Shown here piece after piece: positions 3,270-3,698 of a stretch of 64,000 nt of DNA (the first letter of the stretch is position 1; every line of letters begins with the position of its first letter). The DNA is taken from positions 704,001 through 768,000 of the forward strand of contig CAVTBR010000003.1 in NCBI GenBank assembly GCA_963733055.1, in the 5' to 3' direction. Position numbers and translations under genes: made by a program. The notes beneath the pieces were generated by a model that was not told the origin of the DNA, did not search any database, and saw only the letters and a list, made by a program, of their open reading frames with translations. Source of the DNA: Candidatus Bathyarchaeota archaeon (lineage in GTDB: Archaea; Thermoproteota; Bathyarchaeia; 40CM-2-53-6).

Positions 3270-3506
3270 TTGCAATTACCCGCAAGCCTTGCGATCGGAG
3301 TCCTTTCCGTCGGGGCAGTAGTAGTCCTATTGTCGGGACTAGTTGGGTGGACTAGAAGCCGGCGCGAGAAGTCAGCTGAGCCCATCATTGAGCTTGAGAA
3401 ACTCGTGAATTGTAAATCGTGCGGATCGCTCATGCCTGAGGGTGCCCGCAAATGCGCATTTTGCGGTGCTTGGCAGAGGCAGGAACCGATTCCGGAGAAC
3501 AAATAA
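3270..3506 (+). CDS. membrane-anchored zinc-ribbon protein
   Basis: N-terminal TM helix plus CKSCG...CAFCG. Confidence 0.7.
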   Translation: MQLPASLAIGVLSVGAVVVLLSGLVGWTRSRREKSAEPIIELEKLVNCKSCGSLMPEGARKCAFCGAWQRQEPIPENK

Positions 3507-3550
3507 AGAGCTAACAGGAAATGCGCGAACGCCGCCGAACGGACACACGA

Positions 3551-3678
3551 GCCGCCGTATGCGAATGTTACGCAGACGATAGCTCAGTGGTGGAGCAGCG
3601 GATCCTTCGCAAGAAGGAGCTGAAGCTGTTAAACGGGCAGAAACCCGTTGGTCGCAGGTTCGAGCCCTGCCGGCGGCG
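3551..3678 (+). tRNA. tRNA-Asn(GUU) with three introns (8/9: 3559-3580; 30/31: 3602-3624; 37/38: 3632-3642)
   Basis: Joining 3551-3558, 3581-3601, 3625-3631 and 3643-3678 gives a 72-nt cloverleaf: acceptor GCCGCCG/CGGCGGC, D stem GCTC/GAGC, anticodon stem GCGGG/CCCGT around CT-GTT-AA, T arm GCAGG-TTCGAGC-CCTGC, discriminator G; each intron forms a BHB/BHL-type motif. Confidence 0.92.
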
Positions 3679-3698
3679 CTATTGATTTCACTAGCAAG

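Follow-up and report, generated by a model that had tools for sequence, protein, structure and literature searches.

Multi-intron tRNAs are an established class of molecule, as are relaxed splicing motifs and introns at positions 30/31 and 37/38 (sections of PMC4090602, PMC4033280, and PMC8450103). The systems closest to the gene described here are the interrupted tRNAs of the Thermoproteales and of the Asgard Atabeyarchaeia and Freyarchaeia, which, as sections of PMC4090602 and PMC4033280 describe, likewise have up to three short introns, bulge-helix-bulge or relaxed motifs, and a broad-specificity EndA. In Asgard archaea, tRNA genes are heavily interrupted and software misses introns on the 5' side; as at our locus, introns near the D arm are under-called by standard programs (parts of PMC11291895 and of the preprint 10.64898/2026.10.13.758758). 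A second kind of relative is provided by the split and permuted tRNAs of Nanoarchaeum, Caldivirga, and Cyanidioschyzon, where extra non-tRNA sequence also pairs to give a splicing-competent structure: the extra sequences pair with each other and build the motif, and EndA removes them (sections of PMC4090602 and PMC4033280). Thermoproteales introns at position 3/4 of the acceptor stem offer a third parallel, since their motif likewise uses acceptor-stem bases (part of PMC4090602, citing Sugahara 2008). The text of that review names positions 3/4, 20/21, 22/23, 25/26, 29/30, 30/31, 45/46, 53/54, 56/57, 59/60, "etc."; position 8/9 is not named in this text, figures aside. Our literature search returned no study of tRNA introns in Bathyarchaeia. 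The gene reported here differs from the Thermoproteales and Asgard systems in its Bathyarchaeia host, in an intron at 8/9 that is conserved across the class and not recently gained, and in an upstream copy of its own 5' acceptor strand, for which we found no description in the literature searched, including parts of PMC3218864.

The gene lies at 3551 to 3678 on the forward (+) strand of the window, by which we mean the whole stretch of 64,000 nucleotides that was analysed. It consists of four exons (8, 21, 7, and 36 nt) and three inserts (22, 23, and 11 nt), all on the same strand. Exon 1 (3551 to 3558), GCCGCCGT, supplies tRNA positions 1 to 8 and is followed at position 8/9 by intron 1 (3559 to 3580, 22 nt). 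Exon 2 (3581 to 3601) covers positions 9 to 30, namely the D arm and the 5' part of the anticodon stem, and is separated by intron 2 (3602 to 3624, 23 nt, position 30/31) from exon 3 (3625 to 3631), which covers positions 31 to 37 and holds the anticodon GTT at 3628 to 3630. Intron 3 (3632 to 3642, 11 nt) occupies the canonical position 37/38. The remainder, exon 4 (3643 to 3678), comprises positions 38 to 73: the 3' part of the anticodon stem, the variable loop, the T arm, the 3' acceptor strand at 3671 to 3677, and the discriminator G73 that follows it.

Joining the exons by script yields a 72-nt sequence that ARAGORN calls as tRNA-Asn(gtt), a perfect cloverleaf with all four stems intact. 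Its anticodon GUU, discriminator G73, and class I cloverleaf are the features by which a tRNA-Asn is identified. An earlier note on this DNA had proposed a three-intron tRNA-Asn(GUU) interrupted at 8/9, 30/31, and 37/38, and every coordinate of that proposal is present in the sequence. A split or permuted tRNA is ruled out by the colinear arrangement of all four exons within 128 nt. We also searched the genome for a second tRNA-Asn, a check that the earlier note had left to be made, and none was found: BLAST of the spliced sequence against its own genome matched this locus alone, and the other gene with a GCCGCCG acceptor strand is a tRNA-His (anticodon GTG, discriminator C73). A genome-wide search with the GTT anticodon arm gave 117 unspecific matches, none inside a tRNA candidate. 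Taken as a whole, the locus is very probably functional and the one tRNA-Asn(GUU) gene of its host, a soil archaeon of the Bathyarchaeia.

Standard scanners fail on this gene, as had been anticipated from its layout. ARAGORN at default settings reports no tRNA in the window, and with introns allowed it mis-calls the unspliced gene as tRNA-Trp. Rfam gives no match in the window at gathering thresholds; at relaxed thresholds its tRNA model scores 25.8 bits, below the 29-bit cut-off, and covers model positions 8 to 63 only. Across the host genome (2.88 Mb in three contigs), just 13 tRNA matches exceed the Rfam cut-off. For the genome-wide counts given below, we used a scanner of our own, which is incomplete, and retained 33 genes judged real by eye. 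Unless annotation models 5'-proximal introns, tRNA-Asn and other tRNAs will seem to be missing from genomes of this group, which is widespread in soil and sediment. The three bases after the tRNA (3679 to 3681) read CTA in this genome; CCA is encoded there in the other 28 of 29 parsed orthologs, and most other tRNA genes of this genome encode CCA.

We examined the three introns against the bulge-helix-bulge motif, defined by two 3-nt bulges on opposite strands, a 4-bp helix between them, and cuts between the second and third bases of each bulge. Motif statistics refer to 29 parsed tRNA-Asn orthologs. Intron 2 has exactly this form, with helix CAGC/GCTG, bulges GG|A and AA|G, and a 6-bp hairpin. 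The hairpin is found in 29/29 orthologs, with 14 distinct stems, and the 4-bp helix is intact in 28/29. Intron 3 has a relaxed, bulge-helix-loop structure in which C32 to T35 pair with GCAG (helix CTGT/GCAG, with one T-G pair) and the inner hairpin is missing; it is present in 21 of the 29 orthologs, at lengths of 11 to 25 nt, and absent from eight. Intron 1 combines a 4-bp hairpin (TGCG/CGCA) with bulges G7-T8|A and A-T|A9 and a central helix in which C3 to C6 face the intron strand GACG, leaving one C-A mismatch. This mismatch occurs in 25/29 orthologs, the remaining four having four full pairs. The corresponding strand is GACG in 25 and GGCG in four, with GGTG in further genomes, and both GGCG and GGTG pair fully with CGCC. 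In 25/29 orthologs the hairpin closes directly with 3 bp or more; 18 distinct stems occur. The hairpin stems of introns 1 and 2 thus change among orthologs while pairing is retained, and recurrence of the layout in 29/29 with 18 and 14 different stems is more than chance would give. The assignment made in the earlier note (a full bulge-helix-bulge for intron 2, a bulge-helix-loop for intron 3, and one C-A mismatch in intron 1) agrees with both the sequence and the 29 orthologs.

Removal of the introns restores a canonical cloverleaf (ARAGORN), as is expected of introns spliced by EndA. The exact placement of intron 1 deserves comment. In this genome, placement at 7/8, 8/9, or 9/10 gives an identical mature sequence; in 11 orthologs in which intron 1 begins with T, placement at 8/9 alone restores U8-A9-G10. 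The A preceding GCTCAG is invariant in orthologs, and the two bases before that A vary. The A of the C-A mismatch is base 3576, which had been singled out for confirmation. It is not an assembly error: the same A is found in 25/29 orthologs, and at 3576 no difference appears in the contigs that cover it from two further DNA runs, data in which related strains are seen. For intron 1, RNAfold prefers a 3x3 internal loop to the exact bulge-helix-bulge register, which it does not predict; we counted this failure as evidence neither way. The host genome encodes two EndA paralogs (PF01974) of 189 and 199 aa (83.9 and 54.7 bits), which fit a heterotetramer, and an RNase P RNA (176 bits).

Among named genomes, a pattern scan located the interrupted gene at 13 loci, all in Bathyarchaeota/Bathyarchaeia metagenome-assembled genomes (MAGs); the other listed matches were bacterial and due to chance. 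This places the host outside the Thermoproteales, and the comparison with that order through which the earlier note had framed the gene does not hold for its lineage. At the level of the order, we fetched 30 orthologous loci from 40 relatives in 10 families; introns 1 and 2 are present in 30/30 (29 were parsed, and one, L036, was read by eye). A class sample of 301 genomes gave matches in 75 of the 87 genomes of the order, always with the insert at 8/9, and no insert-free tRNA-Asn at this position was found among these 87 genomes. Three matches outside the order look like chance. A later scan recovered the gene, again with introns 1 and 2, from three further families that belong to other Bathyarchaeia orders (four genomes). 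Confinement of the 8/9 intron to one order had been an artefact of a D-loop start fixed in the class-scan pattern. Presence throughout the order and in other families indicates that the intron architecture of tRNA-Asn, as read from these sequences, is old and conserved across the class. A phylum scan for GCCGCCG...GCCGCCGT proved too noisy to be used: 113/401 genomes matched, a control pattern also matched many, and most matches were GC-rich coding repeats (30 loci checked).

The part of the gene that the first reading had missed is an upstream copy of the acceptor strand. The sequence GCCGCCG at 3531 to 3537 (+), identical to tRNA positions 1 to 7, stands 13 nt upstream of tRNA-Asn and is separated from it by a spacer at 3538 to 3550 (+). 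The last two bases of the spacer, GA, can pair with T12 and C13, which would extend the outer helix of the intron-1 motif, and position -1 is A or G in 29/29 parsed orthologs. A TATA-like box read by eye, AAATAAAG (3501 to 3508, +), from which we take the position of the promoter, ends 22 nt before the copy. Ordinary tRNA genes of this genome have an AT-rich 8-mer ending 22 to 30 nt before the mature 5' end, and in five genes with a leader copy the TATA-like box ends 22 to 25 nt before the copy (both by eye). From this spacing we infer that transcription of tRNA-Asn probably starts at 3531 or a few bases from it. The copy is also seen in tRNA-Asn of other orders of the class.

A copy at the predicted transcript start, where leaderless tRNA genes begin, raises the question of whether exon 1 is really the upstream copy, with the second copy intronic, or whether the insert stays unspliced in a pseudogene or an expanded tRNA. 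An Asgard preprint notes, in the part relevant here, that some D-arm insertions may not be introns (10.64898/2026.10.13.758758). Against the first version, the upstream copy is followed by A, G, T, or C depending on the ortholog, and an exon of 1 nt (Asn, Cys) or 3 nt (Glu) would be needed. The second copy is always followed by T, which corresponds to the universal U8. An unspliced insert would not account for a splicing motif kept through many compensatory changes, and a pseudogene is hard to reconcile with the only Asn gene of the genome. We regard this group of explanations as extremely improbable and take the second copy, at 3551, as the start of exon 1.

Leader copies are not peculiar to tRNA-Asn. 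Six of the 33 tRNA genes of this genome have an intron at 8/9 or 10/11, and at both positions the 4-bp motif helix is made of positions 3 to 6 or 5 to 8, so that it competes with the acceptor stem. Exact 7/7 upstream copies precede four of the 33 genes, compared with about 0.08 expected by chance, and all four (Asn, Cys, Glu-CUC, and a tRNA with acceptor strand GGGGCCG) have an 8/9 or 10/11 intron. In total, five of the six genes with such an intron carry a copy, each matching its own acceptor stem: besides tRNA-Asn, these are tRNA-Cys (intron at 8/9, copy GCCGGGG), tRNA-Glu(CUC) (10/11, GCTCCGG), tRNA-Glu(UUC) (10/11, GCTCCGA, a 6/7 match), and the tRNA with acceptor GGGGCCG (10/11, exact copy). 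The sixth gene, a tRNA-Leu (G000:C1:211370, -) with a canonical 8/9 intron, has a 6/7 upstream match that is not conserved in its orthologs; an 8/9 intron without a conserved copy means that the copy is not obligatory. A conserved hairpin lies in the tRNA-Leu leader of about 45 nt, whose final bases, CCTGG, are complementary to D-loop CCAGG (loci L202 to L216) and could, from their sequence, extend the outer helix of the motif.

We followed copy and intron through the orthologs of two further families. Among the matches listed, tRNA-Cys and tRNA-Glu orthologs include 47 with both features, none confirmed with the intron only, three with the copy only, and 42 with neither. Within the order, tRNA-Cys has both in 21 cases and neither in six, with no case of either feature on its own, and tRNA-Glu has both in 18, the copy only in one, neither in 10, and the intron only in none. 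For tRNA-Glu in a phylum sample of 401 genomes, again among the matches listed, the counts are 13 plus 8 with both, none confirmed with the intron only, two with the copy only, and 26 with neither. The 13 come from 27 loci that matched the copy pattern, of which all 13 tRNA-Glu have the 10/11 intron and the other 14 are not tRNAs. The eight are intron-bearing tRNA-Glu among the matches listed that lack an exact pattern match; a copy is present in 8/8, three of them exact with a 1- to 2-nt spacer, three reading GCTCTGG, and two reading GCTCCGA. Intron-less tRNA-Glu among the listed phylum matches are without a copy in 26/28 cases. At one phylum match (G062:C87), an insert at 10/11 comes without a copy, but also without a 3' acceptor strand in the 289 nt fetched. 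The combination of 10/11 intron and copy in tRNA-Glu extends to other classes of the phylum (L268, L277, L279, L282-L285, L287, L289, and L327-L330), in small genomes of 1.0 to 2.2 Mb.

These counts overstate the number of events. Kin are not independent, and the data amount to about five tRNA families and a few losses; within each family, one or two joint origins of intron and copy, followed by inheritance, may account for what is seen. What carries more weight is that a copy occurs in five tRNA families and in each matches that family's own acceptor strand.

How the copy varies bears on what it does. All variants seen are either C5 to T, which pairs with G68 as G-U (loci L256, L323, L324, L327, L299, and L300), or G7 to A or T at the end of the helix, and these are just the changes that selection for pairing would allow. 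The upstream 7-mer might alternatively act as DNA, as an initially transcribed or promoter-proximal element and not as an RNA pairing partner. Its placement relative to the TATA-like box, which is that of the mature 5' end in ordinary tRNA genes, would suit such a role. We nevertheless consider a DNA element very unlikely, for the 7-mer differs between tRNA families and always equals the gene's own acceptor strand, the 27 tRNA genes without 8/9 or 10/11 introns do without any such element outside the tRNA, and the tolerated variants are compatible with RNA pairing.

A different explanation is that the copy is a by-product of intron origin, for example of a duplication of the 5' end at intron gain, with no role in processing. 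Joint occurrence of copy and intron in five tRNA families is what a shared origin predicts, and the conserved copy is dispensable for the 8/9 intron of tRNA-Leu. Copies also persist in three genes without an intron, the tRNA-Glu loci L246 (G022), L299 (G185), and L300 (G174). Relatives of L299 and L300 carry the intron and the same GCTCTGG copy, and from this comparison the two loci seem to have lost the intron precisely and kept the leader. We read the copies at all three loci as probable relics, although they would also fit a copy unlinked to splicing. A neutral relic should decay, however, and within the order the 7-mer is exact in 30/30 tRNA-Asn, 21/21 tRNA-Cys, and 16/18 tRNA-Glu while the spacer changes in sequence and in length (4 to 13 nt at tRNA-Asn). 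Such substitutions as the 7-mer does show either preserve pairing, as C to T opposite G does, or sit at the helix end, and the bases after the 7-mer are unlike positions 8 to 10. We judge a by-product without function unlikely, though less so than a DNA element.

The reading that we prefer is that the leader copy serves as a stand-in. On balance we infer, with moderate confidence, that it pairs with the 3' acceptor strand in the precursor and so frees exon 1 for the splicing motif. The primary transcript, starting at or near 3531, would carry all three introns; EndA would cut it at the bulge-helix-bulge motifs, and an RNA ligase would join the exons. In the intron-1 motif, exon-1 bases 3 to 6 would pair with GACG, and bases 1 and 2, together with two leader bases, would pair with D-stem positions 10 to 13, pairings that would exclude both the normal acceptor stem and the normal D stem. 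The copy, paired with 3671 to 3677, would form a surrogate acceptor stem, which would prevent the GC-rich 3' strand from pulling exon 1 away from the splicing motif and would delay RNase P. With intron 1 gone, exon 1 would be left without another partner, displace the copy, and take the 3' strand, and RNase P would then remove the 20-nt leader. Removal of the leader by EndA was considered and dropped, there being no bulge motif at the junction of leader and exon 1. The proposal thereby departs from split and permuted tRNAs: here the leader would pair with a strand of the tRNA itself (positions 66 to 72) to free another, and RNase P would remove it.

Folding models of 29 Asn precursors are consistent with this proposal. 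With the leader present, the copy pairs with the 3' strand at probabilities of 0.97 to 1.00, exon-1/intron pairing averages 0.56, and the minimum free energy (MFE) is about 10 kcal/mol lower than without it. When the leader is removed, exon 1 turns to the 3' strand (mean pairing, 0.93) and exon-intron pairing is down to 0.13. With poly-A as control the outcome was mixed, acceptor pairing averaging 0.65, and a reversed-copy control was uninformative because GCCGCCG reads identically backwards. An added complementary strand is expected by construction to pair in a folding model; the result makes the stand-in model plausible, nothing more.

A three-intron tRNA is itself of a known type, and novelty lies in the leader copy, the part that could matter. 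The link between the copy and 8/9 or 10/11 introns bears on the long-standing question of archaeal tRNA intron placement: it suggests that intron positions clashing with the acceptor stem are usable only where a compensating strand is supplied. The stand-in model predicts a fixed processing order and copy-dependent splicing. The same layout occurs in at least five tRNA families in Bathyarchaeia and, for tRNA-Glu, also in other classes of the phylum. On the broader proposal we are evenly divided: stand-ins for the 5' acceptor strand, encoded in the leader, would form a general cis-acting RNA device of the Thermoproteota, one that would occupy the 3' acceptor strand and so permit 8/9 and 10/11 introns, and would enforce splicing before RNase P cleavage. 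Some of the other classes with this tRNA-Glu layout may include cultured species, and if so the model could be tested at the bench.

Four further observations concern this gene and others in the genome. Within tRNA-Asn, intron 3 (3632 to 3642) holds ACGGG (GCGGG in several orthologs), complementary to positions 39 to 43 (3644 to 3648). In the predicted fold, this ACGGG occupies the 39-43 strand while positions 27 to 30 sit in the intron-2 motif; on this model, it may be a second stand-in strand, with the complementarity present in many orthologs and not in all. Elsewhere, a tRNA with D-loop and T-loop inserts and no intron at positions 8 to 11 (G000:C1:97443, +) has a 6/7 match, GCCGGTG, 1 nt before its acceptor strand, which could be a chance match or a decayed copy. 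At G000:C3 ~528141 (-), a T arm and a 3' end reading CGGCCCC-A-CCA have no matching 5' acceptor strand within 300 nt, and this locus could be a split, permuted, or very-long-intron tRNA, or a 3' fragment. Finally, upstream of tRNA-Asn, a 78-aa open reading frame (3270 to 3506, +) ends inside the TATA-like box, and its last part shows a CxxC...CxxC spacing that is zinc-ribbon-like when read by eye.
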